In this document: one piece after another, positions 3,232-48,737 of the stretch
Numbering within the stretch: position 1 is the first letter of the stretch
Layout of the letters: each line of letters opens with the position of its first letter
Source: Amphiscolops sp. MND2022
Lineage: Eukaryota
Length of the DNA: 64,000 nucleotides
Reading direction: 5' to 3'
Assembly (NCBI GenBank): GCA_964187785.1
Contig: OZ076414.1
Coordinates: 2,108,001 to 2,172,000 of the forward strand
The notes under the pieces: generated by a model
Seen by the model: only the letters and a program-made list of their open reading frames with translations
Told to the model about the DNA's origin: nothing
The model's database searches: none
Position numbers and translations under genes: made by a program

Positions 3232-3597
3232 TCACAACTTGACTGTAAGGGGGCAACTGGTGTACTCCTCTTTCCCATTAATCTCCGGTCGTAACATAAC
3301 AATATAAAATGACTCCAACGTAACAAGAGTAGAAACATTGTAATGTTTATCAATAATTTTCAAATCGTAGGATTGCAACGAACCACAAGTGCGTAGATGC
3401 TGTCCAACTGGTGCCTTCTCCTTAAGATGCTCATTTACACGGGTTTTCAAATGCCTGGACGTCTGCCCGACATAGCAAGCATTACAGCTTGAACATGTAA
3501 ATTGGTAAATAACCCTGCTGCTGAGCTCCTTTGGAGTAGCTGGCTTCAAACTGGGCAATGCTGTCTTTAATTTTCTTGTCGTAAAAATAACATTCAC
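3232..3597 (-). pseudogene. Penelope-like retroelement 3' fragment (GIY-YIG endonuclease)
   Basis: VIYQFTCSSCNACYVGQTSRHLKTRVNEH...E..I....PEIN is the PLE GIY-YIG signature with its CxxC. No RT lies upstream. Confidence 0.8.
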
Positions 3598-4561
3598 GGG
3601 AGCAGCTTTTCTGATCTTCTCTAAAGTTAGTTTAATTGAAAGTCATTACTTAACGCATTTAGTATACAAAACAAGCCGGGAATCAAGTCGGCTCCCCGCT
3701 CAAGGTTCAAAAAAGTAAAAAGTTTTTTAAATATGCAAAAGGACACCATTGTTAAAATTTGACCAGTTTTACAGAGCCAAAAATACCTGAAGGGATACAA
3801 ATAAGACTCGAAAACACTTTGTAGACAAAATGGGTCTTACAACTCTTCTTGTCTCTGGCCCTTGCATCTATACTATATGCGTTAACTGATGACTTTCAAT
3901 TAAACTAATTTGTATTTCCCAAGTTTTTAAAGCTATTTTCAGCCTGAATGTGTCATTGTTGACACTGTGTCTCTACGCCATTCAGACTTTGGCTATCCAC
4001 ACGCAATTTGGCTATTCTTAGAGAAAGTTTTCAAAGCCTCTTGGTATAGCCCGACTGTAGTAAGAACCACAGTTCTGGACGCCTCAAACCAGGGTATCTC
4101 GGAAACTTGAAGTATTAGACTGGAAGAAAAAACTAAAATTGAAACCATCTCAAACAATTTTTAGGAGTCGGAAAAAAATTTGACTACTGCAATCGTACCT
4201 TTTTCTTTTCTCTCGACCTTTCAATGAAAATTTCAAACTTCTCAACAAGTGTCCATACGATTCTAACGAAACTTTATACAGTCATTCTACACCTAGAGTC
4301 TACTTATGTGCAATGGCATCAAAATCGTACGACTGTGATGTGAGAAAAATAGCCAAAATTAGTCAAAAAATGACCGAAAAAGGCCAATTTTGGAGTTTTT
4401 TGATTTTCTCAAACTCTTTGGATTTACAAGAACTTCAATGGAGTCTTTCTACACCATATAAGAGCTTAATATGTGCAATTTTATCAAATTCGAATGACGG
4501 ATTCGAGCGAGTCAGAAGAAAAAGTCCTAATCCGACTCTTATAGCGCACATGCGGCTCTGA

Positions 4562-15169: not shown

Positions 15170-15457
15170 TCCACCAGTGTATGTGGCGGCGGTGGGGGAG
15201 GAGGAGGGGGTTCTGGTGTGTCGAAGTCGCCCCTGAGGAGAGCGATGTCGCAGATGAGCAGGTTCAACGGGCGCAGGAAGATCCAGTCTGCCATCAACAT
15301 CGCCGCCAACTCCTCTCTCTGGGACCAGATGGCCGCTACCTTGAACGAGAAACAGCTCAAACACACCTCTCTACATGCACCCCCTCCCCCTCTGCTAGAT
15401 GCTCTGCACACCAACACCATGAACAAGGCCGTCAATGACGTCATCACCATGATACAG
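15170..15457 (+). CDS. CASK: CASK-like exon 8 (Gly-rich linker, CaM-binding helix RFNGRRKIQSAI, start of L27)
   Basis: TTGTAG|...CAG|GTCAGT; 288 nt. RFNGRRK corresponds to CASK KFNARRKLKGAV. Confidence 0.85.
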
Positions 15458-15664
15458 GTCAGTCAGTTAGTGGGTGTTAGGTCAATAATTTTTAGTCGGC
15501 GCTTGAAGTGAAACGCGACTGTTATAGTGACTTTTTTTCTATCCACACGAACTGACCAAAATAGTTCTACAAAAGTTCTACAAAATATTATTGCATCAAA
15601 ATGCACTATTTCGTCTAGCGAACTGAACCAAAAAGGTTTTTCCTGTTTTTCCGCGTAACATACC

Positions 15665-15908
15665 AGTAGTAAAGGAGGGGGGGGGGGTTTATGAACGTTT
15701 TTGGCTCCCAAGCGAAAATTTTCTAAGATAGATTTCTTATGCACGTTTTGGGCTCCCAACCGAAATTATTCTAAGATAGATTTCGTGTGCACGTTTTGGG
15801 CTCCCAACTCGAAAACTTTCAAAGTCATAAAGCTCAAAGGTCAAACTGATTCTTTATTCAAAATGTGTGCCGTATGTCAAGCATTATTTACATTGCAAAC
15901 CGATGAAG
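15665..15908 (+). repeat. Maverick left TIR (244 bp) containing ~2.6 copies of a 48-bp unit
   Basis: Reverse complement of 29302-29546, with about 5 substitutions and a 1-nt difference in G-run length (compared by eye). Confidence 0.95.
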
Positions 15909-16259
15909 CTTCTTACTGCAATAAAATTGAATAATCTTAGCATTAATGAAAATATGAAGCAGTCCAACCTTTTCTCTGCTGAACATGAGGCCTGAGGCCA
16001 TTAAGAAGTAAAAGTAAAGAGATTTTGATAAACTGACAAAGTGAAGCCATGTTCGTTCCGGAAAACTGAAAAACACAGCGACAGCAGTATCTATGTACTT
16101 AGACTCTGGAAATTCCATGGAAAACTCCCATAAAAGGCACCTATGACACCTCCTATCATGAAATTGATGCAATTGTCCAGATAACGGTTGGCGAAAACGC
16201 CATTATCAAAGTATCCTCATTACAAATCAGAAGCAAACTCAGAAGAAAAATCAGAAAAT

Positions 16260-17075
16260 ATGACTACTGTATTTCGCGAAATACCATTCAATTATTGGCT
16301 TGTTCTGTTTGCCACTGATGAAAATCGAGAATCTCAAAAAGAAGGTAATTCCGAGATGCCAGTCAGTGTTGCAGAGATGCTCGAAACACTAACAAACTCG
16401 AATGGTTGTCAGTTCATTTACAGGAAGCACAAAAACGGAGAGAATAGCGATGGTGAACTTAACGATTTCTGCCAATCCATGCCTTCAAACCACTCTCACA
16501 TACTGCTCTACATTCCCTATTTTTCTGGAGCCGAGAAGTTGATAAAACAGTCTGTTTCTCAAACGCTATCCAATGTACAAAATGCCAAAGTCAAACTACT
16601 AACAGTCTCTTACCCAGAAAACTTTATGAAAACGGAAATCTCAATGTTCCACGATGAATCGCTAATTATCAGAGGCGAAAGGATGCAGAAGCTAATCAAA
16701 GTAAAAACAACTGAGACTTTGGGTTGTAAGTTTGTATCTTCATGGGAATTTGAGAAACACAATTCCCTAGGAAACTGTCCCGAGAGTGAGAAGGCACTTT
16801 ACGTTTTCCAGAAACTTTTGCAGCTCGAGAAAAGTGACGCACCTTTCAAAGACACAATAATTTCCTACATCGATCTTCTACAACGGGGAATGGGGCGACT
16901 TTTCCTTACGGAGCACAGCCGAACGTTGGACATTGACTTGGGTGTTTCAAATGCTCAATGCACATGCTACGAGTGTCTCTATCAGCCATTACATGAAACA
17001 CAAGACGACCAAAGCACAAACTCTGAATTTTCTCTCTTCAATGAAGACACTATAATTGATACTTCATTTTTGTAA
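16260..17075 (+). CDS. Maverick ORF1, hypothetical protein (271 aa from ATG 16260)
   Basis: Long open frame inside the element with a CxCxxC motif near the C-terminus. No family recognised. Confidence 0.7.
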   Translation: MTTVFREIPFNYWLVLFATDENRESQKEGNSEMPVSVAEMLETLTNSNGCQFIYRKHKNGENSDGELNDFCQSMPSNHSHILLYIPYFSGAEKLIKQSVSQTLSNVQNAKVKLLTVSYPENFMKTEISMFHDESLIIRGERMQKLIKVKTTETLGCKFVSSWEFEKHNSLGNCPESEKALYVFQKLLQLEKSDAPFKDTIISYIDLLQRGMGRLFLTEHSRTLDIDLGVSNAQCTCYECLYQPLHETQDDQSTNSEFSLFNEDTIIDTSFL

Positions 17076-17128
17076 AAACTTTTCTAGAAATCAGTTGGAT
17101 CCAATACATTTCTTTTCACGAAGTGAAA

Positions 17129-17536
17129 ATGTTTTCAGCGCGAGAAATTTGTGAGAACTTTAACGCCGTAAATTATTTGTTCCCAAGAAACACTACAACT
17201 AAAAACGCATTTCTAGCAGTGTGCCGTTATCTGGATGAAAATGTTGATTTGAGAAAAGTCAATGCTTTAGCCCAGTCTGGAGGCAAAATAGGACCAGGAG
17301 ACAGCAAACTTGACGACTACTTTAACTTTTCAAAGATATTGAGATTGCATGCAATTTTTCATGATGCTCATGGCTACATGAGAAGTTTTGAGAACGTAGG
17401 ACCTGGTTACGTTTATACCGTTACAAAAACTCAATCCTTTCGGAATAATATGCTTCTAGGACATGTCTCCGGAATAGCTTATTGGACGTTTGTCAAACTT
17501 TTCCATCGCGAACATTTCGACGCATTCCCTTTCTGA
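17129..17536 (+). CDS. Maverick small ORF, possible phospholipase A2-like (GPG...HD) protein
   Basis: KIGPGDSKLDDYFNFSKILRLHAIFHDAHGY resembles the parvoviral PLA2 pattern GPG-x18-HD-x2-Y (here x20). The ORF is solid; the function is inferred. Confidence 0.55.
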   Translation: MFSAREICENFNAVNYLFPRNTTTKNAFLAVCRYLDENVDLRKVNALAQSGGKIGPGDSKLDDYFNFSKILRLHAIFHDAHGYMRSFENVGPGYVYTVTKTQSFRNNMLLGHVSGIAYWTFVKLFHREHFDAFPF

Positions 17537-17620
17537 ATTTTCATTTCTTACCTTGAACCTCTTTGAGTTCGGTCGCAACAGAACTAGAGGGAAAACGTTG
17601 CATTCGAAACACTAACGATT

Positions 17621-17977
17621 ATGAGCACAATCGATACGTGTCGCAGCAGTGGATATTGTAGCGAGTTGACGTTGAACGAAAACCCCCGAGATCAAGAAGA
17701 TCAACTTGACTACGCTGATTTGTCTGGTCCAAATCTTGAAAGGATAATTTTCGATAACACTGATCAAGAAAGACCTCCCTTCAGCTTCAATTGCTGTGAC
17801 TCACGCGTGGAGAGATCGTTACTCCTAGTTTTCTTTCATTATGCTATCATACTCGCAGTAATATCTTTTTGTATAATTTTTCTGTCGCTTTGTGATTCAG
17901 AGAGCAAATTTGCATCAGGCGTCTTGGCACTTTTATCAGCTTGCGTTGGCCACGTTTTACCCGGTCCAAAACGATGA
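17621..17977 (+). CDS. Maverick small membrane protein (two C-terminal TM helices)
   Basis: Hydrophobic segments LLLVFFHYAIILAVISFCIIFLSL and FASGVLALLSACVGHVLP. Its stop overlaps the ATPase ATG (ATGA). Confidence 0.7.
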   Translation: MSTIDTCRSSGYCSELTLNENPRDQEDQLDYADLSGPNLERIIFDNTDQERPPFSFNCCDSRVERSLLLVFFHYAIILAVISFCIIFLSLCDSESKFASGVLALLSACVGHVLPGPKR

Positions 17978-18675
17978 ACAAAAGAATCAGCACTAACCCG
18001 CATTGCTTCATTTCAGTCGTCGGGCCTGCTGGCTGTGGCAAGACACGCTTAATTGGAAGGATGATTTCAAACCAAGAGAAAATTTTCCGACCGTCTTTCG
18101 ATAGAATAATCTATTTTTACAAACACGATCAAGATTCCTACGAAAAACTTAGATTTGAGTGTTCGACTAAAGCTGTCGATCTTGACCTTGTTCAAGGTTT
18201 GGAGTGGAATGCTGTCGAGCGAAGCGAGGCTTTGAAGCAGAGAACTCTTGTTGTTATCGACGACTTGTATGATGAAGCTGCTCAAATTAAAGAGTTTCTA
18301 GACCTAGTTATTGCTGGACGTCACAAAAACGTACATCTAATGGTTCTGCGACATAACCTTTTTCAACAATGTAAAAACTCGAAGACGATCGACCTGAATG
18401 TCACTCAGATGATTCTGTTCAACAGCCCGCGAGATTTAGAGCAAATTGGAATCTTGGGTCGTCAACTAGGAGAGCGATCAACTTTAATGAAGGCATATAA
18501 AAGGGCTACGCAGGAACCATTCGGTCATTTGATGATTGATCTGGATGTTCGAAGCAATAGAAACTTGAGATATTGCTCTCATTGCTCTGCAGACGTACCA
18601 ACTCATTTTTATTGTGCTACAGATCAACTTTTTGTTTCACTAAACGATGAATTCACAAAATTATTATACTCTTGA
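17974..18675 (+). CDS. A32/FtsK-HerA-like DNA packaging ATPase
   Basis: Walker A GPAGCGKT, Walker B LVVIDD, then RH and HNLF motifs typical of Polinton ATPases. Confidence 0.92.
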   Translation: MNKRISTNPHCFISVVGPAGCGKTRLIGRMISNQEKIFRPSFDRIIYFYKHDQDSYEKLRFECSTKAVDLDLVQGLEWNAVERSEALKQRTLVVIDDLYDEAAQIKEFLDLVIAGRHKNVHLMVLRHNLFQQCKNSKTIDLNVTQMILFNSPRDLEQIGILGRQLGERSTLMKAYKRATQEPFGHLMIDLDVRSNRNLRYCSHCSADVPTHFYCATDQLFVSLNDEFTKLLYS

Positions 18676-18988
18676 TTTATACCAAAAGTTTTCACCTACC
18701 CTGAAAAAGTTTTTTATTCTCCACTGTTCTGATGAGTTAATTAAATTTTTTTGTGATTGCATTTTCAATGTAGTGAAGGGAAAAGTGAAACTTGAAAACA
18801 ACATTCAACGAAAAATGGCTGTGCTTTCACGCGAAAAAACGAACATTGAAACAATTTGCACCAAGAGACGCGTCTCTTTGAAGAGAAAACGTCAAGTGTT
18901 AGGCTCTGACAGAGGAATGCGTTTGCTGAAACTAGTCATTCCGTCAGTTCTGAATCATTTGAAAAATTGCCATGACAGCAAGCAGTAG
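18647..18988 (+). CDS. Small basic Maverick protein downstream of the ATPase (putative virion core protein)
   Basis: IKFFCDCIFNVVKGKV...KRKRQVL resembles the conserved basic ORF that follows Polinton ATPases. Recognised by motif only. Confidence 0.6.
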   Translation: MNSQNYYTLDLYQKFSPTLKKFFILHCSDELIKFFCDCIFNVVKGKVKLENNIQRKMAVLSREKTNIETICTKRRVSLKRKRQVLGSDRGMRLLKLVIPSVLNHLKNCHDSKQ

Positions 18989-19661
18989 CTTACGCGATCT
19001 TATTTTAATCACTCACGAGGAGTATATATCCTTGAAGCAACAAGTCAAAAAGCCAGATGCTCGCGAAAAACAAAAGCAACATATACTTTCAAATCTGGGT
19101 CAAGACACAGACTACCTTCACCGACAAGAAAAAGACATGGATGTTTCTGAACCCTCAAAACAGTCATCAGAGGACGCTCTAGTAGCCCAGTTGAATTTAA
19201 ATTCAAGGTATCCCACAGAAAAAGATATCAGCAAAAGCAGTGAGAAAGTGAATGAAGCACGCCAAAAACCGTCCGATCTAGTTTTATCGAATTTACTGGA
19301 ATCTGGCGTCACGGGTGGTAAAGTTGAGAGGTCGAGGCAAATTTTGAAAAAGATTGAAGATTGTGAGCGAACCACATTAGATGATACCAATCATACCATA
19401 ATTTTGGATCAACAGGACACTGGAATCAGTGTAGTAGAGTTTCTGTCAGCACTGCAGGTTAATACCAAACAGCTACCGAAAAAGTTTTTAACTTTGGTTG
19501 AAGTTCTCAGACTTCCTCAATTTTTACTAGCAAACACTTATGCTAGGCATACTAGCAGTCAAAATCAACATCATATTAGACTTGCTGCCGGTGCCTCGCC
19601 TTACAAGAAACTGAAGCTTGATAGCGAAACCGTACCTAATCAGTGGCTTACAAATTTCTGA
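18972..19661 (+). CDS. Maverick hypothetical protein (229 aa)
   Basis: Open frame overlapping its neighbours in the dense gene array. No recognised motif. Confidence 0.7.
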   Translation: MTASSSLRDLILITHEEYISLKQQVKKPDAREKQKQHILSNLGQDTDYLHRQEKDMDVSEPSKQSSEDALVAQLNLNSRYPTEKDISKSSEKVNEARQKPSDLVLSNLLESGVTGGKVERSRQILKKIEDCERTTLDDTNHTIILDQQDTGISVVEFLSALQVNTKQLPKKFLTLVEVLRLPQFLLANTYARHTSSQNQHHIRLAAGASPYKKLKLDSETVPNQWLTNF

Positions 19662-19663
19662 AA

Positions 19664-20828
19664 ATGGGAAACAAGAAGTGGGTTTGTGGATCATGCAAAA
19701 AAGTCTCGGCAAAGGTTCCAAGAAAACTCCATCGCTTTGGTGCCACGTTTGCGGATGGATTCACTTCAAGTGCAGCGGGCTAACAGACAGCAAAGAATAT
19801 CACGACAATTTTTTGTGTTCACATTGTCGAGAAAGCCGAGTCTTGCTCGATGATGAAAAGGACGGAGACTATGCAGCTGCGTTTCCAAAAATTCATGATC
19901 ACTACACGAATCCTGGAAATACATCAGCTTTTGGGAGTAGACGAAGCTTGATTAAAGCATCAAAGTTCCGGCCACAAGACAAGATGTAGACCGTTATTTA
20001 AACTCGAGCGAAACTTACACAAAATTCAAATTACCCCGAAAACGTTTTCCACGGTTGAAGGTTATTAGCTATAGACTGAACGAAATTTGGTCAATAGACT
20101 TGGCAGACATGCAAAAACTGGCAAACACTAATGCCGGCATCAGATACCTATTCGTCGCTGTTGACGTCCTGAGTCGTTACTTATGGGTTGAATCCATCAA
20201 GGTGAAAACGGTCCATGCGTGTAGGGAAGCTTTGAAAAAAATATTCGCCAAGAATGACAAGTCACGAAATCCCAAAATTTGTCGTGAAACACACCAACCA
20301 GAAAAAATTTGGGTCGACAAGGGTCGTGAATTCTCGGGCGAATTTGCCACTTTTTGCAGTCAACGTGGAATTGAGATTTATTCCACCAAAAGCGAGACAA
20401 AATCTGCTTTAGCCGAAAGAAACATCAGATCTTTGAAGTCGTTAATTTTCAAATACATGCACGAACATGACCAAAGTAGATATTTTGACAAACTTGATCA
20501 ATTTGTGGCAATCATTAACAACCGAGTGAACCGTATGACAAAGTTGGCACCGTCTTCGGTTTCACAAAAGGACGTCAACTATTTAGTTTCTCTCTGTCAC
20601 ACCAACGCCCAAAAGAAGCCAAAATTCAGAATTGGCCAACAAGTTCGCATTAGGCGCAAGATTGACACTTTTCATCGAGGTTACAAAATACAGTTCACGG
20701 AAGAATTGTTTAAAATTGCGGCAATACCAACCAACAACCCTCCAACTTATATTGTCAAAGACTGCGACGGCGAAATTATACAAGGAAAATTTTACGAACC
20801 TGAACTCGTGCGATTCGCTCCAAATTGA
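19664..20828 (+). CDS. PHD finger-retroviral-type (rve/DDE) integrase, ~388 aa after restoring two 1-bp homopolymer frameshifts (~19702 and ~19964)
   Basis: The N-terminus reads CGSC...CHVCGWIHFKC...CSHC, followed by YTNPGNTSAFGS, WSIDLADM (D), WVDKGREF (D) and AERNIRSLK (E), and ends GKFYEPELVRFAPN*. Confidence 0.88.
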
Positions 20829-20839
20829 CTGTGTCAACG

Positions 20840-21859
20840 ATGGACGGACTGTCAGCAAGTGTTGAGCATTCAAGTTGCAACCAAGAATTCACCATGAATC
20901 TCATTTCCAATGCTTCTATGGATACTTTTCCCGAAAACACATTGTCCAGTTTTACGACTCTTTTACCGACACCAATTCATCTTTCCGGCGAGTGGCAGGT
21001 GGCTCTACTGGAAATTGCTTGGCCCAATATTATCCAGAATGTGACTGTGGGAGAATTCACAGTATACAAACGAAACATCCAGTCGCCAGTCGAGAAGCGA
21101 CCACGCAAGCACAACCGACCCGGTGCCATTTCAATGGCGATTCCTGCAGCATTCGAGCGTCAATCTCCTGCTTCGACTCTCCCGTTTTACACAGCTCCTG
21201 TAAAGCACCGCCTAAAACCGGGATGTTATACATCGGTCGATTCAATTTTAGCATCAATCACAAAAATTGCCATGGGAGAAGAACAAATGGGAAGAAAACG
21301 AATCTCATCATCCCCTGACAATGTCTTATCACTTTTGTCATGGAAAGTTGACAATGTAACGAGAAAACTACATGTTAAATTTTGCGGAAATCACAAACAA
21401 TATGGGTTGAGAATTTTCACCGAGTCCAATGATTTGCGAAACATTTTGGGCACGAATGTAATCATTGATTGTGGTGAGTCACAAAAAGAAGCAGTGGAAG
21501 AGATCGATACAGAATCTGCATCAAACACAATTGTCAAGCATGTTGGAAAATGGCCAGTTGACTTGAATGCAGGCAGCCATACCATGTTTTTGTATTGCGA
21601 CCTCGTGCAAAACCAAACATTGGGCGATAAGCAGACGGCACTCTTGCGATCGATTCCCGTTAAAAGTCTAGCTTTGGTGCAGACGTTGGGAGAGATGAAT
21701 CACAAAAGTTTCAGCAATCTGCAGTGGAAACGCGTCATTAAATCGCATTTTCAGTCAATCAACGTCACGCTCGCCAATGAAATGGGTCAAAAAATTCCCT
21801 TCTTGAGTTGCGGTCGCACCAATGTGACTTTGGCTTTTAGACCAACACCTCGACACTGA
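20840..21859 (+). CDS. Minor capsid protein (penton)
   Basis: FTMNLISNASMDTFPENTLSSFTTLLP..IHLSGEWQVALLEI and MFLYCDLV..Q..GD....LLR.IP are typical Maverick penton motifs. Confidence 0.85.
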   Translation: MDGLSASVEHSSCNQEFTMNLISNASMDTFPENTLSSFTTLLPTPIHLSGEWQVALLEIAWPNIIQNVTVGEFTVYKRNIQSPVEKRPRKHNRPGAISMAIPAAFERQSPASTLPFYTAPVKHRLKPGCYTSVDSILASITKIAMGEEQMGRKRISSSPDNVLSLLSWKVDNVTRKLHVKFCGNHKQYGLRIFTESNDLRNILGTNVIIDCGESQKEAVEEIDTESASNTIVKHVGKWPVDLNAGSHTMFLYCDLVQNQTLGDKQTALLRSIPVKSLALVQTLGEMNHKSFSNLQWKRVIKSHFQSINVTLANEMGQKIPFLSCGRTNVTLAFRPTPRH

Positions 21860-21935
21860 CCAGACATCATTCATTCTGAAATTTGTGAAAAGTACAGTCG
21901 CTCAAATTGACCAATTTAATTTCATTGGCTCCGGA

Positions 21936-22448
21936 ATGGATGCCCATTACGATGCACAAATTAAAGCCAATACTCACACAACATTCAGTGGACCAGCCAG
22001 ACAGATGGGATCTGGGGGTGGCATTGGAGCTTTTGCTGTTCGAATGGGTCGTGTAGCCATTCCACTAGTTAGAAAGTACGTCTTACCTGTAGCAAAACAA
22101 GTCGGCAAAAACTTGATAGAAAGCGCCGTTCCGGAAATTGGACAGATTTTGTCAGGCAAGAAAAAGCCCAGCCGTAAGCTGTTGACTAATGTCGCCAAAA
22201 GGGCTGCCATTGAAACTGTAAAGACAAACTTGCCGAGCGGTGTTGCCCTTCGGCCGGGCGGCGGCGTCGGCGAGCGGAAACCCGGACCGCAGCGGTCGGC
22301 GGCGAAGGCAAAGAACGGAGTTACACGAAATGTCAAACAATCATCAGGCAATAGAAAGCGAAGTAATAGTCTCTCAAGCATTTCAAAAAAAGCGCGCGCC
22401 AAGAGAAGTCGGTCCGACATTTTGTCTGAAATTCAATTTTCCCAATAG
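21936..22448 (+). CDS. Basic putative core protein (Q.G.G motif, K/R-rich C-terminus)
   Basis: FSGPARQMGSGGGIGAFAVRMGRVAIPLVRKYVLPVAKQVGKNL is the conserved Maverick ORF between penton and MCP. Strongly basic tail. Confidence 0.7.
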   Translation: MDAHYDAQIKANTHTTFSGPARQMGSGGGIGAFAVRMGRVAIPLVRKYVLPVAKQVGKNLIESAVPEIGQILSGKKKPSRKLLTNVAKRAAIETVKTNLPSGVALRPGGGVGERKPGPQRSAAKAKNGVTRNVKQSSGNRKRSNSLSSISKKARAKRSRSDILSEIQFSQ

Positions 22449-22463
22449 ACAAAAATTCAGAGA

Positions 22464-23816
22464 ATGGCAGCATCAGTTAACAACCTCTTTGTGGGAAACT
22501 CGACGGAAATTGCAAAACCAGTGACACACAGCGCTCTAGACTATTTCGAAAAGCCTGAAGTAATGATCAATTACGAAGGGGCCTACGATCAAGAAGTATT
22601 CCCCCATGTTGGTTGTCGCGGACCACAGTTGGATTTTTTTGTTGCCGCTGAAGCAAAAAATTTGATTGACTTGAATCGCATTGTTCTCAGTGTTGAGGTG
22701 GCAATCTATCATGAGGATGGAAAGACAAAGGCAAAACCAGGTGACTTTGATGCAGTTTTTTCCAACAATACCCTCCACACGCTCTTTTCGCATGCAGAAT
22801 TGTATCTCAATGGGAAATTGATTTCTCACAGCAACAATTGTTACTTACATTCCGCATTTGTGGAAACTGAATTAACCACCGACACTGATAGTAAAGCTTC
22901 ATGGGCCAAATGTCAAGGCTACAATTATTTAGCCAAGTCCAGTGAGAAAGATCAAATGTTCAACAAGCTTGCAGCTGATTTTGCTCAACTGAAAGAATCC
23001 AAAATGCAGTTATGCGGTGCTCTCCACATTGATTTTCTGGATTGCGAAAAACTTTTACTGCCCAATGTCACCCTACATATTCGTCTTTACCGCTCGCCAA
23101 ATAACACAATCATCCATCTCAAAGGCACCGATGATGAAGCAAAAGCGCACGACGGAAAACTTTTGGCCATTGTCGAGAAGGCTTCGCTTTTTGTGAGGAA
23201 GGTTGTAGTGACTGACAGTGTTAAATTGTCGATAGAAAGAGCACTGGTGAAAAGCGATGCAATGTATCCGTACATTGAGAGTTTGAACAAAAGTTTCATT
23301 ATTCAAGCCGGGCAAAATTGTTTCATAAAGGAAAATGTTTTTGGCACCGAGCCAATTCGACGATTAACTTTGTGCATGGTTAAAAACTCCTTGTTCCGAA
23401 GTACGCCACTAAACGAGTCTCCTTTCTCATACCAAAAGTTCAACTTGCAAAGAGTGGAAATCCAAAGGGGCAATGGTGTTCCTTTAGCTGGGACACCATT
23501 GGATACTACAAACAATGTGAGATTGTACTACAATACGATTACCGCTCTTGGATTCACCCAAAAGAGTAACGGCATCAGCCTTGAGGATTATACAGACAAC
23601 CATTTTTTTCTCGTGTTCGACTTAACATCAACTGAAGAAGCTAGCAAAACTTTCACACTTTTCCCCGAGCTAACGGGATCCAGTTTGACTCTAAAGCTGT
23701 ACTTTGAGAAAGCACTCGATGATGCTATTGAACTTTTTTTGATTGGAGAGCGATTTAGTCAAGTGTTTATTGACTCAGCGCGCAACATAAAGAAAAACAG
23801 CCCGTTTGATGGATAA
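22464..23816 (+). CDS. Major capsid protein (double jelly-roll), 450 aa
   Basis: Size and position fit. Motifs LHTLFSHAELYLNGKLIS, LHIDFLDCEKLLLPNVTLHIRLYR and FFLVFDLT are characteristic of Polinton MCPs. Confidence 0.9.
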   Translation: MAASVNNLFVGNSTEIAKPVTHSALDYFEKPEVMINYEGAYDQEVFPHVGCRGPQLDFFVAAEAKNLIDLNRIVLSVEVAIYHEDGKTKAKPGDFDAVFSNNTLHTLFSHAELYLNGKLISHSNNCYLHSAFVETELTTDTDSKASWAKCQGYNYLAKSSEKDQMFNKLAADFAQLKESKMQLCGALHIDFLDCEKLLLPNVTLHIRLYRSPNNTIIHLKGTDDEAKAHDGKLLAIVEKASLFVRKVVVTDSVKLSIERALVKSDAMYPYIESLNKSFIIQAGQNCFIKENVFGTEPIRRLTLCMVKNSLFRSTPLNESPFSYQKFNLQRVEIQRGNGVPLAGTPLDTTNNVRLYYNTITALGFTQKSNGISLEDYTDNHFFLVFDLTSTEEASKTFTLFPELTGSSLTLKLYFEKALDDAIELFLIGERFSQVFIDSARNIKKNSPFDG

Positions 23817-24357
23817 TTCAACATTACAGCAGATTGTTCTACAGAATCCACATTTGAAACCAAGCTTTGCTGGTGTTTGGTCTGCAGACAATTTTCCTAA
23901 ACAGCCAGGATGGACCGAACAACGGATAATTTTGCGGAGAGGATCAAAACATTCATTGTACTATAGACCTCGTTTGGTTTGGTTCCAAATTGTCAACACA
24001 TCCCCATTGGGTGCAGTAGGAAAACATTGGCTGCTACTGGGAGCAGTCTCGACACAAAAGAAGAAAAATCTAGTTTTTGTTTGGGATTGTCTAGGTCAAC
24101 CCTTGTCACGTTACAAAATTTTCGCTCAGCGTCTGAAGCTGCTGTACGGAAAGACAGGATTCTCGACAATCAACCTGACCCTTCAAAACGCCAGCTCAAA
24201 TCTGTGCGGGCTCTATTGTCTCTTCATGATTGACTACATTGCAAGGAATCCTACAAAAGCACCTAAGGAAATTGATCCAAAACTCTTTACAGAAGTTGAA
24301 ATTATTCGTTTCATGAATGGTCAATATCATACATTGTTTAGATATACTGTAGTGTAA
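23809..24357 (+). CDS. Adenain/Ulp1-like cysteine maturation protease
   Basis: IVNT......GKHW (His), VWDCLG (Asp), LQ (Gln) and CGLYC (Cys) are all present. Confidence 0.88.
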   Translation: MDNSTLQQIVLQNPHLKPSFAGVWSADNFPKQPGWTEQRIILRRGSKHSLYYRPRLVWFQIVNTSPLGAVGKHWLLLGAVSTQKKKNLVFVWDCLGQPLSRYKIFAQRLKLLYGKTGFSTINLTLQNASSNLCGLYCLFMIDYIARNPTKAPKEIDPKLFTEVEIIRFMNGQYHTLFRYTVV

Positions 24358-24428
24358 GACATCTACTTTTTGAATTTAAACGTTATATACCCTCGCCATT
24401 TTGCATAAATAGAAGCAGTATTGAGCTA

Positions 24429-24907
24429 TTAGTTTTCATCTCCGCTACTGGAAGAATAATTCACTAGTTTAAATTCGGCACTTGAGCAAATTTTTCGTCG
24501 TTTCTGAGTTGAATAATACTCTCCATTAAATTGAGAACCATCGTCGTCGTCAGTCGACTCTTGTGCCTCATAATTAATGAATGGACAATCAAAGTGTGCA
24601 TCGTGCTGCTCATCAGCCAAGTCGTCAGATAGAGTGTCCCAATCAACAACATCTGGTAATTCTTCATCATCGTTAGAGCAAGAAGCTGATTCATTGAAGC
24701 CAGGATCGGGGGCATCTAAATTAACAATTAGGTTTATATCAATGGTGAATATAAAGTGATCGATACATTTGTTATAAAACGGTACCAACTGAAATTTGTC
24801 AAGTCAGATTTTAAAGCTTGTTTCAGAGGACTCGCGTAGCTGGAAGCACGCGATGAGCAGCTGCCATCGAGAGAGTCGGCATCAGTATCACTGTCAGAAG
24901 TGGGGAC

Positions 24908-24947
<40 letters not shown>

Positions 24948-27900
24948 ACTGATTTATCACAGTCACTAGAAGAGTCCAACTCTTCGTCAGAAGCAACATT
25001 GACTAAAACCTCACGCTCTCAATACACAAAAAAATTTTTTAAAATTAAAAAACGAAAATTACCTTGATCTGGAACTGGAATGGCATAATGACCATACGCT
25101 AGCGACGCAATCCCATCATTCAATATGTAGCGCTTGTCGTCAAAAGCACTCAATGCTATTTTCTCGACAGAATTAACAACAATTTGGTGATTGACGGACT
25201 TCAGTTGAAACATGGTCTTGGTTACTTGTTCTTTCGAGAGGAGGCACTTTTTGAAAAGATCATGATGCAACGTCTTTTTAACAGACTTGGCAACGCCCTT
25301 TGCACTCTGTTTCTTTCCGCCCACGAAGTCGATGCTGTACAACTTGGATCTGAGACAGACGACTTCTCTCAGAACTTTGCCTTGGAGCTCATCCGTCATA
25401 GTTAAAGGGACTTTTTTGTTTGTTGGGTCATATAGAAAGTGGTCTTTAGGATAATCAGACAAGTCGAGAAGGTGTTTGAAACCGGCCATGTCTTGATACA
25501 AATTTTCTGTTTCGACGCAATAAAGCAGCGAATCCGTGTCTTTGTAGGCCAATTTCAACTTAGCTGCAGAATAGCGGGGTACCATTTGCTCATAATGGAA
25601 TTTGTAAAGCGAAAGTTTGGACAAGTCAAGAATTGATGCTCCCACCGGAGTTGGTTTGTCCCATAGGACACTGCTCGATTTGAACGATACGCTGACCAGA
25701 TTTTCATTGACGATATTGAATGATTTGAAAGATGGTTTTTGAATCATTGATTCAGCTTGTTGAACGTTTCCCACAAAAGCAATTTTACTTCGCTTGCGCA
25801 GATTCTCCATTGTTTTTCCGAAACAAGCGTTGCTCATTAGCTTGAAAAAGTTTTTTTCAAAGTCATTTTCAGCCTGCTTACGCATGATGGTATTTTTTTC
25901 AATGTAGACACCCAACCATGTACTTTGATTAAACTCGCACACACGATGCAGTTTTTCCACAACCAATCCATGCTTTACATAAAATTTCAAATTTTCGTAG
26001 TGACAGACGTAGTTTTTCTTGTCAAAGAGGGTTTCAATCAGTTTAGGGACTTTGTTCGGCTTCAAGCCAAAAGATTTAGCGTAAGCAGACAGCCATTGAG
26101 GCATAATTTGACGTTTCTCGGGTGCCAAAGGCAAGCCATTGTGAGTATCATGAAGTTCTTTTGGATACAGGAGGTCAACTTCGACAAAGAAACCGACATC
26201 TGCATCAGCGGGAGTATCGAGAATTTGTTGCAATGTTATCGCGGTGTTCCATTTATAATTGCCTATGGGCATCATTTTTTGCATTGTGCCCGCATATAGA
26301 GACGTGACATCAAAGAACGCTCCAAACGTTGTAGCTTTGCTAGGGTTGTGATGAGGTAGCAAATCGTTGTTGGCACAGAAATGTCGAATCTCGCCGACAC
26401 CATTAACTCCACCCTAATTCCACGTTCGAAAAACAAAAGTTTGTCAATTTCATCCAATAAGCCCAACTTTGCATCCGTTGAGATCAGCATCGCGTCCCAA
26501 CTGAGGTTCGGAGCTGAGTAGAAATGAGCCGGGTCAAGCTTGTACACCTTGAGACAAACCCTTCTAAATTTTTCAAAAATGTCAGCTAACAGAAAAACAT
26601 CCGTTTGCAAGTAGAGATCGTGGTAATCTCCCAGATTCTTACAAGCAAAAGCTTCATAGATAGTAACAGCTTCATTGTATTGGTCAGGAGTTATATCCAC
26701 TGTCCCAGTGAGGGTATTTTTCCAATCAATTCCGAGGGGTGGCAACGGTTCATCAAACTTTTGGAAGCTGTCCAGAAAGCTGTATGGAAAAAAACCTTTT
26801 TTGGTCAGTTTTTCGAACACCTGATCAGGTACACCAGAAAAATGTTGACGAAGGAGTGCAAAATCGTCAGCCTTCAATGTCTTAGCCAATGATTCCAAAC
26901 TTTGTGACATGAATTGCAAGCTGTCAAGGAATCGCAATGAATGAAACAGCCTGACAATTCTGTTCTTTTTGTCAGTGTAGCTTCCCACCGGCATAGATAA
27001 GTTAATTGAAGTAAAAGTCTCATCAGTTCTGGCGATTGCTGAAAGTTTTTCACCCTTCTCCAATTTCAAATTTTTCAACATATGATGCGAATCGTAGCGC
27101 GAAAAATTGTGGAAGAATACGGGCAGAAAATTTGTTGTTCTTGCTTGCAGGTTACACTTGGAGTGGGCCACGCCAAAGACTTTTCCAGACAAATGGCAAT
27201 GGTGAATCACCCGTGTGGAAACTTCAGCTTCTTTACCGCAGATGCAACACTCGGCAAAATGCACATTTAGGATCCTTTCGCGCTCAGCTTTTGGGATTTT
27301 GAGCCAACGGAACTTTTGCTTTTCTGAGTAACACCAGACAGACCATTGTCGTAAAGTGTTCAGGAGCTTCGATATAGAGTTTCGACCACGATAAAAGGAC
27401 TCTTTCACAACTGCTCCAGCTAAAATTACCAATTATAGTTGAAATATGGTTGATTAATTGTTGGAAAATATAAATGAAAACACTAACCCTTGTTATCGAC
27501 CAGAACAGCACCGTAACTAGCAGGAAACTGTCGCTCAATCTCCCGCGTTTTCGTCGAGAGGCTGTGGGTTTCAGTTTGACAAACATTCAATGCCTCCAAA
27601 TCAGCGTACACAACAAATGGACACTGCTGTGTTTTCTGCCAATTCACAAACTGGAGTAATCGGTCGTCTTTCGGCATTAGGATTTCCAAAGGATCGTTGG
27701 ATTCACAAAAAGTGGAATGCCTGGCCATATTTTGTTTCAAAACTGGTTGGAAACAATTCCTGCAGAATCGACTTTTCGGACCAGTTGACCTTTTCCGCGG
27801 AGAGCGAGAAAGATGATGAATAAGGTTTGAAAAGTTTTTGATGAGACAATAGTGACTCCGTTTCCCTTCAACCAATCGCAAAAGATTAACTTTTCTTCTG

Positions 27901-28913
27901 TGACTTTTGTTTTTGCTACTGTAGATATTGATCAATTTTCTCCCATCTAACTGATAGACATTGATTGAGCATCGGTTTCTAACTTCAAAGGATCGAATAC
28001 CAGAGAGTGGCATGGGCATTTGTTTTGCATTAAAATGTAGCTTATGCACATTTTCCAAATGTGTTTTGGGTCGAAAGGCACGACCGACGAAAGAGAACAG
28101 CGCCGCGGCAACACAATACAGGAAGCAGAAATTGTCCTTTTTATTGACTATATTCAAAAGGCTTCTTTTCAATTTCTGCAGAATAGGGGGCGTTTTGATG
28201 TAGGAACCAGCAACCACAGTAGCACATTTTGCAGTCTTGATTTCAAATCTCTCCTTTTTTTCCACAACCCAGCCTGAGCCACCAGTAGCAAACACGTTGA
28301 GTTGGCTCATCAGTTGATCCAAGTGCTCCAAGAACTCCTCTTCAGTAAATTCCAGCGATAGCTTGGCCATGCTTGAATTGAAAAAAGCTTCGGTCGAATC
28401 GTCAACTAAAGGTTTGCGTAAACGCACGCTCATTGAAAACCCCATCTTCATGTTGCCTTCAACCTCCAAAATCGAGTTGACAAATCCCATAATTTTGTCT
28501 TTCAATGAAATCAAGCAATTGAAAGGTTCAATAAACAACGACTCCCCAAGTTTCAATCGATGAATTTGGAAATGTGATTTCAAAGCTTTTGTTGAGAATG
28601 CGATAGTTGAAACATTTTCTGGAAGAGAGCGTTTGACGTTTCCAGTGGAATGCAACTCCTTCTCATGCGTAGAAAGAGCTGTAGAGCAACCATAAAAACT
28701 GGGACATGTAGAACATCGGAATTGGTTTGTCATTTTATGGACGGAGCGTAAATGCCTCAACAAATTCTTTGATTGGGTGAAACCTGTAGGACAGTGTCCA
28801 CAGTGGAATATTTTGGTGCACTGTTCAATATTTCCATGTTTTGTTTTCATATGATTGCTTAAAGCTCGCTGGGAAGCCAAAATCTTCCCACAATGTTGGC
28901 ATGAAAAATTCAT
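24429..28913 (-). CDS. Protein-primed DNA polymerase B (pPolB), proposed spliced gene. Exons 28913-27488, 27419-25063 (1-bp frameshift ~26413), 25002-24790 and 24715-24429; ~1,427 aa
   Basis: Three C2H2 fingers, ExoI YADLE, Endo VII-like HHCHLSG..AH..CNL, ExoII HNFSRYD, ExoIII YLQTDVFLL, and polymerase motifs FDVTSLY, KLMSNACFGKT and YKDTDS. The GT-AG introns are all phase 1. The polymerase call is firm; the last two exons are less certain. Confidence 0.85.
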
Positions 28914-29301
28914 TCCAGAGTGAAACCTTTCAAATATTCACGGTGCCATTCCATATCAAGTTGAAATTTCTCAAGATAAAAAAGAGCAGAAAACGTACTA
29001 GGAAATTCAACTACTTTTTTGAAGGAGAATGGCACCGTGAAGGAAAATTTGAGACAGTTTAGCTTTTCAATTTTCCGGAACAGTAAGAAATCGTAATTAT
29101 GGGCTTTTAAGAGCGAAGATTTTCATTCACTTGTGAGCTCTGATATAACATTCGATTTCTTTCAAAGTTTGTCCAAACGGTACTTTTCTATTCTATCTCT
29201 GTGAGAATGTCACGAAAGGACAGTCAGCAGTCATCTGTATCAATAGGATTCGAAATCTTTCTAAGTTAACGTTTCTCTTGGTATAGAAACCTTTAAGAAA
29301 C

Positions 29302-29546
29302 CTTCATCGCTTTGCAATGTAAACAAAGCTTGACATATGGCACACATTTTGAATAAAGAATCAGTTTGACCTTTGAGCTTTATGACTTTGAAAGTTTTCG
29401 AGTTGGGAGCCCAAAACGTGCACAAGAAATCTATCTTAGAATAATTTCGGTTGGGAGCCCAAAACGTGCATAAGAAATCTATCTTAGAAAATTTTCGCTT
29501 GGGAGCCAAAAACGTTCATAAACCCCCCCCCCCCTCCTTTACTACT
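29302..29546 (-). repeat. Maverick right TIR (245 bp)
   Basis: Reverse complement of the left TIR; ends ...CCTCCTTTACTACT. Confidence 0.95.
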
Positions 29547-30753
29547 CATAGCATACCGGGCGAGACCAAAGACTCCCCCCTTTCATTTTTTTCGGCACTG
29601 CGAGACTTTTTTTCGAAAAAAAAATTTTCCCCAAAGGGTCCCCCCTGCATTTTTTGATGTTTTGCGACAGAATGGATGTTGAAAAATCCCAAAGGGTCCC
29701 CCCTTTCAGTTTTTTTCGGCATTGTGAGATTTTTTCCCGAAAATGAAAATTTTTGTTTTCTTCAATTTTTTCATGTTTTGCGACAGAATGGATGTTGAAA
29801 AACCTCAAAGGGTCCACCCTTTCAGTTTTTCGGCATTGTGAGACTTTAGCGCGCCACTCGGTCCATTTTTTTGAGTATGTAATTTTTTCGAAAAATTTTT
29901 TTTCCAAAAAATTTCTATTTTCGAGTACTGTAAAAGAGTACTTGACACTTGGAAGTCTTTTTGCTATTTTTGAGCTTTGGATATGGCGCCGACTTGGGCC
30001 GGTCCCGGCTTGTTTTGAAGTACGAATACACAATTCTCACTTGGGACAGAACAAATTAATACAGTTGCCCATCTATAATATACAGAGAACCCAATTTGGT
30101 AATATAGGCCCGCATTTGGGTTGAACTCATTTTGCTCATGTCATTAGGTATCAAGTCCATCCATTTCAATCAATTGTACGTTTTGCGTAAAGTTTTTGTA
30201 TGTGATTTCCGCTTCGTCACTGTTCTGCTATAGGTAGAGCTTAAGAGCCTATTTGCCCGCCAACGTGTTGACATAATTGTATCTGACACATTTGATATTT
30301 CTAGACACTGAACTGCTGATTCGTTACGCAATTGTTGAAAAAGTTTTTCAACTATTTCAATAATATAAAGTTCTAAGACAGTTAGAATTTTGTTATCAAA
30401 CAATATATCTGCCGATAGTCAAATTTGTTTCTTAATAATATTGCTCAAGTTTTTTTGTACTGGGTGTTTCACCCGACACCAGTACATTTGAAAGATTTGT
30501 CTCTTGTGGTTGTAATTTGTTGAATAAAGGAAGTAACATATCAAGTTTGAAATGCTGTAAGGAAATGAAAACGTGAATTCGCTCTGCCGAAGATTGTTTA
30601 CGAAAAGCGCCACTTAAGCGTTAGCGGGCCAGTCGCAAGATCGCCAACAAACGATCAGCGCGTTTTTTATTGCTCACTTTGGTTAGACCTGACATCTATT
30701 TTTATAAGAAATGGAATAAGAAAGAAATGAAAAATCTTAATTTCAGCACGGAA

Positions 30754-31237
30754 TTTTTAGTCGGCGCTTCATGAAGTGAAACGCGACTACTATAGTGACT
30801 TTTTTTTCTATCCACACGAACTGACCAAAATAGTTCTTAAAAGTTCTACAAAATATTATTGCACCAAGTTGCACTATTTGGCCTAGCGAACTGAACCAAA
30901 AAGGTTTTTCCGCGTAACATACCATACCGGGCGAGACCCCTTTCATTTTTTTCGGCACTGCGAGACTTTTTTCGAAAAAAAATTTTCCCCCAAAGGGTCC
31001 CCCTGCATTTTTTTGATGTTTTGCGACAGAATGGATGTTGAAAAATCCCAAAGGGTCCCCCTTTCAGTTTTTCGGCATTGTGAGACTTTAGCGCGCCAGT
31101 GGTCCATTTTTTTGAGTATGTAATTTTTTTTCGAAAAATTTTTGATTTTCGAGTACTGTAGAAGAGAATACTTGACACTTGGAAGTCTTTTTGATCCTTG
31201 GATATGGCGCCGACTTGGGCCGGTCCCGGCTTGTTTT
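30754..31237 (+). mobile_element. HINE-like element copy (empty-site reference for the Maverick)
   Basis: Same termini and internal sequence as the split copy. Confidence 0.75.
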
Positions 31238-31907
31238 CCAACAGGTTTTGCCAATTGTTACTAGATGCTGGTACAAAGCAAAACGGCAATCCTATACCCG
31301 TACACAACAAGGCATTGTGCAGCAAAATCACCTGAAATGCTGTTTTAGTCGGCTCTTGATGGAATAAAACGACTATTTTAGTTATCTTTTTTCAATCCTC
31401 TACAATATTTCTTTGATTAAAAGGATTATCTTTTTCTTATTCTGAGATACGTTTCCGGATTGAAAGGGAGTCTGCTTGTTTTTTTGGAGTTGTTTGACTT
31501 TTTTTCGAAAAAATCCTTACTTTTATACATATAGTTTTTTGGATAGAAAATGCGTTTTTTAAGCCCAAAGGGCCCCTTTGGGTTTTTTGGAACTGTGCGA
31601 TTTTCGGGAAATCTTTGGTGTCATTTTGGGTCCTCGCTTTGGTTCTTGCATGTTTCCAGTCATAAATCAGAAAAAATTTTGGTTATTTGTTTTTCTGAGG
31701 AGAAAAAACAGTTTAGGCTATTTTGGCATTGTAATTGAGATTTTTTCGGAAATTTTTTCCTTGACGCTTTGAAGTAATATTTGTTCTCTTCTAGCTTTCG
31801 AACACGCTATTTTCAAAATTTTGCAAAAATGCCCAGTTTCATGGGCGTTAACGCATTTGAAGTTGTTTGTCGATGTAGCAGCGTGAGTGGATACGACTAA
31901 ATTAGCT

Positions 31908-32290
31908 AAAACAAGCCGGGAACGGCCCAAGTCGGCGCCATATCTAAGGCTCAAAAAGACTCGAAAACCACTTTTTCTACAACTGGAGACAACAAAAGCT
32001 CTCAAAAAACTAAAAATTGAGAAAAAAAATTCCGATTTTTTTTTGAAATTTTTTTTCGAAGTTTCCGGTAAGTCGCATAGTGCCGAAAAATGTAAAGGGG
32101 GGACGCTTTTTATCTCATGTTAGACGCTTTGGATGCGTTGAAAATGAAGTACTAAGTACATATGGTAAAAGTCTGTAAATGTGCATTAATTGGATTAATG
32201 CACAAAAAGTGGACGTTACGCGTTGAACTGACGAAAAAAAAACTAGCCACTGTAAGAGTCGGGATTTTCTTCGAAAACGCCGACTAAAAA
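31908..32290 (-). mobile_element. HINE-like element copy, reverse orientation
   Basis: Begins AAACAAGCCGGGAACGGCCCAAGTCGGCGCC and ends GCCGACTAAAAA. Confidence 0.7.
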
Positions 32291-32496
32291 CGATTTCAAA
32301 CATCCGAATTGTAATAGTGACGTTTAAATGCTTTCAATGTTAGAATGAACTAGCATCATTCTATCTAGCAGCAATCTTTGCACAATACGGATGTGCGGAG
32401 TTTTGAAACCCTGTGTAGAGTATAACTCAAAGCTGTCACTTGATATCATTTTTGGAATGTCCTACTGTGTATTGTGTTTTTGTGTGTTGTGTTTAG

Positions 32497-32592
32497 GACA
32501 GTGTTGAGGAGGCGCATATCTTGCACGAGGTGCCTCAGTACGTGTTCAACACCTCGGTGCAGCACGACCCCAAACTCACCACTCTTCTCAGG
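32497..32592 (+). CDS. CASK: CASK-like exon 9 (DSVEEAHILHEVPQYVFNTSVQHDPKLTTLLR; L27 domain)
   Basis: GTTTAG|...AGG|GTGAGT; 96 nt, phase 0/0. Aligns with CASK DSLEEIHAL...QDQHLHTLLD. Confidence 0.8.
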
Positions 32593-41694: not shown

Positions 41695-42110
41695 ATGTCT
41701 GGCAAAGGAGCAGAATCAAAGAACTGCAAAGTTGCAGCTAAGGCCGCCAAGACCCAGTCGAACCTTGTTGGTGTGCAGTTCCCGTTGGCAGAGTTCACCG
41801 ATGCACCTTTCTCACCTAGCTTGCTTGCAAAAACCTGTCAATTTTCGCGCCTTGAATTTCCCCAATATTACACGACAAGAGACTCGTTTGAAGCCAGGCC
41901 ATACCTATTGGGTGCAGTTTCCTGTGAATTTGGACTGAGTTGTGGCTCGTAACATAGCGACAAACAAATCACCGAAGTGTTGAAAATTTCAGTCGTTCGA
42001 ACATGAAACGACGACCGTACGCATTGTAGATTTAATTGGATGGAATACTACAAAATAAAATTGTATTCATTGGAAAAAAGTTGCAATTAGCAGTGCACAT
42101 GACATTAAAG
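41695..42110 (+). pseudogene. Decayed histone H2A pseudogene
   Basis: MSGKG..., QFP(V)GRVHR across a frameshift, P.YL.AV, TEVLKI and LQLAV are colinear with H2A. Multiple frameshifts and stops. Confidence 0.55.
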
Positions 42111-43126: not shown

Positions 43127-43204
43127 TTTTTTGCGAAGGATTAGGGAAATTATTGATGGCTTTACGTCCATAAAATGCCATTATTTTTACGGAGTCCCTG
43201 ATTT

Positions 43205-48563: not shown

Positions 48564-48737
48564 CAGTGGAATCCGCCTAATTCGTATCGCTAGGGACCGA
48601 ATAAAATACTACAAATAACGAGAAATACGAATTAACAAGATGATTTTACTTTGGTCGTCCTGAAATGGGGGTCTCAAAGACGTACGAATTAAACGAAGAT
48701 CCGAATTATCCGGATACGAATTAACCGGAGTTGACTG
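48564..48737. mobile_element. pogo/Tc1-mariner-type MITE (174 bp); inverted copy at 59319-59492
   Basis: TA|CAGT...ACTG|TA with imperfect ~24-bp TIRs; the two copies have the same length. Confidence 0.8.

Follow-up and report, generated by a model that had tools for sequence, protein, structure and literature searches.

The closest described relatives of the element reported here are the vertebrate Mavericks, the alpha adintoviruses and the nematode Mavericks. According to the available text of PMC8097293, vertebrate Mavericks encode a core set consisting of a family B DNA polymerase that is protein-primed (pPolB), a packaging ATPase, an integrase (INT), a minor capsid protein (mCP), a major capsid protein (MCP) and a protease (PRO), with the local orders atp-pm-pz and int-mcp-pw-Mcp-pro. 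Their ends carry an (AGT)2//(ACT)2 motif defined in that source, they are flanked by a 6-bp target-site duplication (TSD), and most copies are degraded. Alpha adintoviruses combine a PF03175-type PolB, an rve integrase, an FtsK-like ATPase, an adenain, a hexon and a penton, as far as PMC8502044 describes them in part. Nematode Mavericks have the same core genes and a history of recent bursts in the portions available of 10.1101/2022.07.12.499685 and PMC10748475. We analysed a 64,000-nt stretch of the genome of Amphiscolops sp. MND2022 (contig OZ076414.1, positions 2,108,001 to 2,172,000; hereafter the window), which contains a Maverick/Polinton element at positions 15665 to 29546 that shares these features, PM, PZ and PW being named by position only.

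The element also departs from these relatives. The ATPase, PM and PZ genes lie on the same strand as the capsid genes and pPolB stands alone on the opposite strand, unlike the arrangement given for vertebrate Mavericks in the available text of PMC8097293. Three introns are predicted in pPolB, whereas intact elements in that source are intronless, and core genes of nematode Mavericks are described as intronless, with introns in cargo genes only, in the part of 10.1101/2022.07.12.499685 available. Compared with the alpha adintoviruses of PMC8502044, as partly described there, the polymerase is predicted to be spliced and the element is known from genome copies alone. We consider it probable that the element is a provirus of the Maverick/Polinton kind whose family expanded recently and which entered a HINE-like repeat within an intron of CASK, generating a 6-bp TSD; that its broken integrase and polymerase frames likely leave it immobile on its own; and that host splicing likely joins the pPolB of its family from four exons. 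The intron-split pPolB and an integrase tipped with a PHD-like finger, both predicted from the sequence, are likely features not usually described for Mavericks/Polintons. Both had escaped the initial annotation, as had the size of the family.

The provirus, its target site and its family

The initial annotation had identified a Maverick/adintovirus-like element, and the ends, TSD, gene set and capsid folds all support this identity; every defining Maverick feature that could be tested was found. The element begins with AGTAGT and ends with ACTACT, spans 13,882 bp (15665..29546) exactly as first delimited, and contains no N. Its left terminal inverted repeat (TIR; 15665..15915, plus strand) includes about 2.8 units of a 48-bp tandem repeat at 15689-15824, and the right TIR (29294..29546, minus strand) carries 48-bp repeats at 29386-29521. 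The TIRs, about 251 bp long and first estimated to be about 98% identical, agree at 245 of 251 aligned bases (97.6%). The two copies of the TSD, CATACC at 15659..15664 and CATAGC at 29547..29552 (both plus strand), agree at five of six bases, the one mismatch having been noted from the start. Thus, long TIRs with the (AGT)2//(ACT)2-type end motif and a 6-bp TSD are both present. The divergence between the TIRs was considered as a clock and rejected: of the six mismatches, five are shared with every one of the 10 sister copies and the other with eight of them, so that TIR identity carries no age signal. The element had been called compact; at 13.9 kb it is indeed shorter than the vertebrate mean of 16.9 kb, but it falls inside the range of 12.7-24.6 kb given in the available text of PMC8097293 and is of the usual size for the families of this genome.

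The element interrupts a host repeat, of which the 5' half (15488..15664, plus strand) is 98% identical, and the 3' half (29553..30013, plus strand) 96% identical, to the copy at 56349. HINEs (non-autonomous Helentrons) are characterized by subterminal inverted repeats, a 3' stem-loop and T-rich ends in the available part of PMC4067079. All of these features were found here, the 3' half carrying the subterminal inverted repeat, the stem-loop and a T-run, and the repeat was rightly named HINE-like. The repeats at 30754 and 56349 read GTAA-CATACC-ATACCG, with the hexamer present once, and had been taken as the pre-insertion site; they do show the uninterrupted sequence, but as paralogous copies and not as the orthologous allele. 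In a search of the genome for an orthologous empty allele, the CASK flank matched only itself (single-copy). At least 14 HINE-like copies of several subfamilies lie within 4561-59120 of the 64-kb window.

The placement in a CASK intron also holds, as two upstream host exons have CASK as their best match in the PDB. The exon immediately upstream of the insertion (15170..15457, plus strand; 5' boundary approximate) has neighbours that match CASK, and 23 kb beyond the window end the strand of the CASK-like exons also carries a guanylate-kinase exon. As far as the kinase and guanylate-kinase exons show it, the domain order expected of CASK is found: a CaMK-like domain, with the GFG variant, precedes MAGUK domains. 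This architecture suggests an animal host. The insertion lies within a phase-0 intron (15458-32496), and the next exon (32497..32592, plus strand, phase 0), which has no Pfam match of its own, is probably the continuation of CASK. That the element specifically targets HINE-like repeats or CASK, or has been domesticated there, seems exceedingly improbable. The site is a young HINE-like copy, 98% identical to its paralogue, as targeting would have it; however, the TSDs of the other copies all differ, and the 30-nt flanks that were compared do not match this site. HINE-like repeats are dense in the window, so a chance hit in one of them is likely. Against domestication, this copy is decaying.

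The MCP gene has at least 95 matches in the 1.07-Gb genome (94 of 1,641 candidates scored). We fetched 40 further loci, comprising the 18 best-scoring after this copy and 22 from more distant groups, giving 41 copies with this one. All 40 share the gene order, most measure 13.5-14.5 kb, and 26 of them have perfect 6-bp TSDs, every hexamer being different. In two cases (L033-L034 and L091-L092) we observed secondary insertions, one of about 1.4 kb near the right end and the other, several kb long, separating the protease from pPolB. This copy belongs to a set of 11 that are only 0.21-0.48% apart, with 238 private against 16 shared variants, and this star-like burst supports the recent integration first proposed. 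Among these 11 young copies there are 46 synonymous and 125 non-synonymous changes and one stop (pN/pS 0.75), which is near neutral. Comparisons of the polymerase across families, in contrast, show strong purifying selection (for example, 131 synonymous versus 23 non-synonymous single-change codons in 300 pol codons).

This copy had been described as complete, with all core genes present. The gene set is indeed present; however, the integrase carries two private frame-changing indels and pPolB exon 2 one, none of them found in sister copies, and pPolB is further divided by its predicted introns. The eight uninterrupted core open reading frames (ORFs) by which PMC8097293 recognizes an intact element, as far as its available text goes, are therefore not all there. 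Coding frameshifts affect 10 of the 11 young copies, 20 in all and mostly in different genes; this count was made after dropping 11 rows in exon 3, which were alignment artefacts in a triplet repeat, exon 3 lengths being multiples of three. Programmed frameshifting in the integrase or in pPolB exon 2 was rejected, since the breaks are missing from sister copies. The MCP, penton, protease and ATPase genes are open. With both the integrase and the polymerase frames broken, this copy can probably not mobilize itself, and the suggestion that it could be virion-competent finds no support for it as an autonomous element. It is probably a dead or defective member of a recent burst.

Weighing against this assessment, 11 of the 20 young-copy frameshifts, including one of the three in this copy, adjoin homopolymer runs and could be assembly errors. 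If all three were such errors, the copy would really be intact and competent, and its mere 20 private substitutions in 13.9 kb and its full set of open virion genes are what one would then expect. We regard this as quite unlikely, for two of its three frameshifts lie away from any run, variation among the copies is near neutral, and one base of the TSD has already changed.

Predicted introns of the polymerase gene

The minus-strand polymerase matches PF03175 (E = 2.6e-8 and 8.4e-7) and has the ExoI and palm motifs of a protein-primed family B polymerase. Its named relatives, from a bivalve, cnidarians and a spider, are just 41-46% identical. Predicted exon 1 (27488..28913, minus strand, as are all parts of this gene) encodes C2H2 fingers, a presumed TP and vOTU region and the ExoI motif YADLE. 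Cys and His motifs are seen at the presumed TP/vOTU region, the OTU being assigned by motif only, and the domain order TP-vOTU-pPolB is taken from 10.1101/2024.03.18.585575. Predicted intron 1 (27420..27487, 68 nt, GTTAGT..TTTTAG, phase 1) falls inside the exonuclease domain just after ExoI. Predicted exon 2 (25063..27419) contains an endonuclease-VII-like insert and the exonuclease and palm motifs, with the private frameshift in the 26275-26413 overlap. It is followed by predicted intron 2 (25003..25062, 60 nt), whose acceptor is homologous to that of sister families and for which an in-frame alternative acceptor at 25018 would give 45 nt. Predicted exon 3 (24790..25002) is Ser/Asp-rich with a variable in-frame triplet repeat, predicted intron 3 (24716..24789) is 74 nt long (GTTGGT..ATTTAG, phase 1), and predicted exon 4 (24429..24715) encodes an acidic tail, PDPG..DWD..CPFIxYEA, plus a basic patch. 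Host splice donors are of the same type as the predicted pPolB donors. Judged from the sequence, the polymerase gene of this family likely has three GT-AG introns and is spliced from four exons, and it would differ in this respect from the intronless core genes of intact Mavericks in the available text of PMC8097293.

Intron 1 could be scored in 39 of the 41 copies (c07 and c16 were left out). An insert of about 60-88 nt is present in 31 of them and cleanly absent from eight. In 29 of the 31 inserts, the offset of GT is the same, and excision up to AG would leave precisely the 30-nt spacing seen in the eight insert-free copies; the remaining two have a changed donor and a 1-nt offset, respectively. 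The inserts are diverged in sequence and their lengths fall in all three frame classes. The unspliced frame stops just after ExoI, so removal of intron 1 would be obligatory for any polymerase. On the pPolB tree, the eight copies without the insert group together in a single clade with a bootstrap value of 100 (39 copies, with c16 and c34 left out, and no outgroup); a single gain or loss of intron 1 is therefore enough to explain the distribution on this outgroup-free tree. The break after 27488 might instead reflect an adenovirus-like division into two genes, split TP and pPolB genes being known in some polintons (10.1101/2024.03.18.585575), or a programmed frameshift. This is highly improbable, given that the break lies inside the exonuclease domain after ExoI and not at the TP/vOTU border, that the insert varies in length through all three frame classes with GT and AG fixed, and that eight relatives read straight through.

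In each family the last polymerase motif is followed by a phase-1 donor, after which come a predicted Ser/Asp-rich exon, another intron and a final, acidic exon. A model with introns 2 and 3 fits 35 of the 41 copies, c32 having been left out of this search and of the following test. A more stringent test is the acceptor AG of intron 3, whose offset is constant in 39 of the 40 copies scored and throughout the nine families; the background per position is 5% for an AG, or 1% if YAG and a pyrimidine tract are required. Across the genome, 133 matches to the last exon were found. In addition, the tail motifs are contiguous with pPolB in one ORF in two of 43 homologous C-termini from other sources (E = 3e-7 and E = 0.008), and the cluster member P0441 likewise has the tail fused to pPolB; the proteins with fused tails are P0354, P0441 and P0400. 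Since these outside homologues carry the tail motifs on pPolB itself, the acidic tail probably belongs to the enzyme proper.

Several observations weigh against the four-exon model at this end of the gene. The two-intron search was permissive and the acceptor of intron 2 is ambiguous. The tail motif is missing from 41 of the 43 homologous C-termini, many of which are this genome's own unspliced frames, and in exon 4 the coding signature does not reach that of the pol core, the pair c19/c39 lacking it altogether (6, 5 and 5 changes by codon position). One may ask whether pPolB ends at the stop inside intron 2, with the acidic exons 3 and 4 forming a small gene of their own or being used in a minor isoform. 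Nothing of the catalytic domain lies beyond the start of intron 2, most homologues stop a few residues past the YGH motif, and the coding signal of the last exon is modest. However, phase-1 donors stand directly behind the YGH motif in every family, the unspliced stop wanders between 9 and 27 codons among copies (94 in one), and the three outside proteins named above have the tail fused to pPolB; we therefore think it unlikely that the gene ends there and retain the predicted gene of four exons.

Spliceosomal introns within full-length elements have a parallel in the introner-bearing polinton-like elements of dinoflagellates, as described in the available part of 10.1101/2025.03.18.643946, the introns here being predicted. 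Those introners are mostly young and gained after integration, whereas the predicted pPolB introns appear old, diverged, fixed in position and inherited within lineages. Our literature search, with Kapitonov and Jurka 2006, Pritham 2007, Repbase and supplements outside its scope, returned no title on inherited spliceosomal introns in animal Maverick pPolB.

Integrase finger, capsid modules and other genes

The rve integrase (19664..20828, plus strand) matches PF00665 (E = 9.6e-11) and has the DDE motifs, though in this copy it is interrupted by two frameshifts, one near the 5' end and the other in the 19956-19986 overlap. At its N-terminus, eight Cys/His ligands in PHD spacing are found in 38 of the 41 copies; in this copy the finger is split by the first frameshift. 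A profile of the finger matched PHF23 in the PDB weakly (E = 0.006). Among metagenomic relatives, one of six integrases (L097:2421-3650) has a canonical-looking N-terminal PHD finger, which matches the Pygopus PHD (E = 2.7e-5), and the other five have none. Among 58 candidate stretches in viral_contigs, no integrase relative was confirmed. On the other side, the PHD match lies below the Pfam cut-off in every protein scanned, and one loop is one residue shorter than canonical. The motif pattern suggests that the integrase is likely tipped with a PHD-like finger, predicted to read histones.

A Gypsy-like integrase fused to a PHD finger, in a gene with introns, is also described for Ginger1 in the available text of PMC2836005. 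Ginger1 is a cut-and-paste element with a C-terminal PHD, whereas the finger here is N-terminal and on a Maverick integrase; the same text says that the Maverick integrase is without an N-terminal zinc finger. The term 'PHD' does not occur in the main text of PMC8097293 on vertebrate Mavericks. In our literature search, which had the founding Polinton papers, Repbase and supplements outside its scope, no paper on an N-terminal PHD in animal Mavericks was returned, and Ginger1 was the sole precedent found.

Eleven plus-strand genes converge on the minus-strand pPolB with gaps between neighbours of -29 to +84 nt, in agreement with the dense array first described. The jelly-roll folds of the capsid proteins, which the initial annotation had named as a test of its claim, bear that claim out. 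The MCP (22464..23816, 450 aa; AlphaFold pLDDT 84) models as a double jelly-roll, which Foldseek matched to the PBCV-1 capsid (E = 6.7e-16) and also to Sputnik and mavirus. The minor capsid protein or penton (20840..21859, 339 aa; pLDDT 86) models as a single jelly-roll and matched the mavirus penton (E = 5e-9), followed by adenovirus penton bases. The other two virion genes encode a packaging ATPase (17974..18675; Pox_A32, E = 2.6e-6), with Walker A and B present, and an adenain/Ulp1-type maturation protease (23809..24357; Peptidase_C48, E = 6.9e-5; Peptidase_C5 weak) with His and Asp motifs, so that the packaging ATPase and adenain-like protease of a Maverick/Polinton are both found.

The histories of capsid and polymerase genes differ. 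Trees of MCP and pPolB from 13 representatives reject each other, with log-likelihood differences (delta logL) of 698 and 446 and approximately unbiased (AU) test p values of 2e-38 and 0.001, obtained from 5,000 replicates, a number below what the program recommends. For example, one group is 89% identical to this copy in MCP and about 45% identical in pPolB exon 1. As these sequence trees indicate, families have traded their capsid and polymerase modules with one another. For adintoviruses, too, the available text of PMC8502044 describes PolB lineages that exchange virion modules, and the same is seen in this genome.

ORF1 (16260..17075, plus strand, 271 aa) is conserved in all families with invariant H57, H78 and H80, and has no Pfam or PDB match. 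Its HxH pattern is, we presume, reminiscent of HUH nucleases. The reading of ORF1 as an Argonaute MID/Piwi-like decoy was rejected, its ESM Atlas score of 0.82 being below the 0.9 threshold; the lead was not reproduced with a diverged homologue, with Pfam or with a 23-sequence profile against the PDB, which gave weak FGF1 matches alone (E = 0.05 or worse). In metagenomic Mavericks (L106, L107, L108, L114-L116), distant homologues of ORF1 are encoded downstream of the protease and on the opposite strand. ORF2 (17129..17536, plus strand, 135 aa) is highly conserved and has an HDA motif, which may be PLA2-like, with no match in Pfam and none in the PDB. ORF3 (17621..17977, plus strand, 118 aa) has two hydrophobic stretches and is likely a small membrane protein. 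Three further plus-strand ORFs, of 113 aa (18647..18988), 229 aa (18972..19661) and 170 aa (21936..22448), are named PM, PZ and PW from position only and gave no Pfam profile match; the last is K/R-rich and likely a core protein. With these names, the order ATPase-PM-PZ-INT-mCP-PW-MCP-PRO agrees with the two modules that PMC8097293 gives for vertebrate Mavericks, which here share one strand. Neither the PLA2X nor the GasderminX of alpha adintoviruses was confirmed in this element, and no fusogen or host cargo was recognised in it, unlike in nematode Mavericks.

The 11 plus-strand element genes are co-directional with CASK, and it may be speculated that their poly(A) signals could truncate CASK transcripts. 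A GC-rich open frame with a donor-like end at 60777-61352 may be one more exon of the host. Within the host intron downstream, 41952-46057 and 44055-49472 contain near-identical duplicated blocks (300-nt stretches 98-100% identical) with spacings of about 3.2 kb and 4.8 kb, which may represent recent tandem duplication or assembly duplication. Two short minus-strand frames, at 3232-3642 and 1564-1794, resemble pieces of a GIY-YIG (Penelope-like) endonuclease and of the C-terminus of a hAT transposase, respectively. An Rfam scan of the window gave no matches.

Proposed mechanism and significance

According to established Polinton biology, the parent element would have been copied as linear DNA from its TIRs by the protein-primed polymerase. 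The integrase would then have inserted it through a 6-bp staggered cut with no sequence preference, here into a common repeat in a long intron, and MCP, penton, ATPase and protease could package linear element DNA. The pPolB gene would be transcribed by host RNA polymerase II (Pol II) and its three phase-1 introns removed by the spliceosome. In most families of this genome, splicing of intron 1 would be needed for the polymerase to exist at all, while an enzyme made after removal of introns 2 and 3 would be longer by an acidic tail of about 165 residues and retention of intron 2 would yield a tail-less one. The PHD-like finger may tether the integrase to chromatin. After insertion, copies would drift nearly neutrally and gather frameshifts. 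This copy could still express its open capsid genes, but moving would need integrase and polymerase from another copy.

A more far-reaching proposal, which we regard as possible but doubtful, is that this is a currently mobile animal Maverick lineage in which replication is gated by host splicing. The intron in the exonuclease domain would be an on/off step, retention or removal of the 3' introns would switch between tail-less and acidic-tailed polymerase, and the integrase PHD would read histone H3 tails and steer insertions to gene-rich chromatin. Intron gain in one polymerase clade, together with module swaps, would then be traceable within one genome.

As a single insertion, the element is ordinary, a young and already broken Maverick, and its family is more informative. 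If the introns are spliced, ORF-based screens would call every such element defective, and 'intact' Mavericks would be under-counted in invertebrates. Such elements would then have to use nuclear Pol II transcription and the spliceosome, arguing against a cytoplasmic phase of gene expression. The PHD-like finger on a Maverick integrase offers a testable idea on insertion-site choice, and the presence of intron-bearing and intron-free polymerase clades and of shuffled modules in one genome makes both recombination and the gain or loss of an intron in Mavericks accessible to study.

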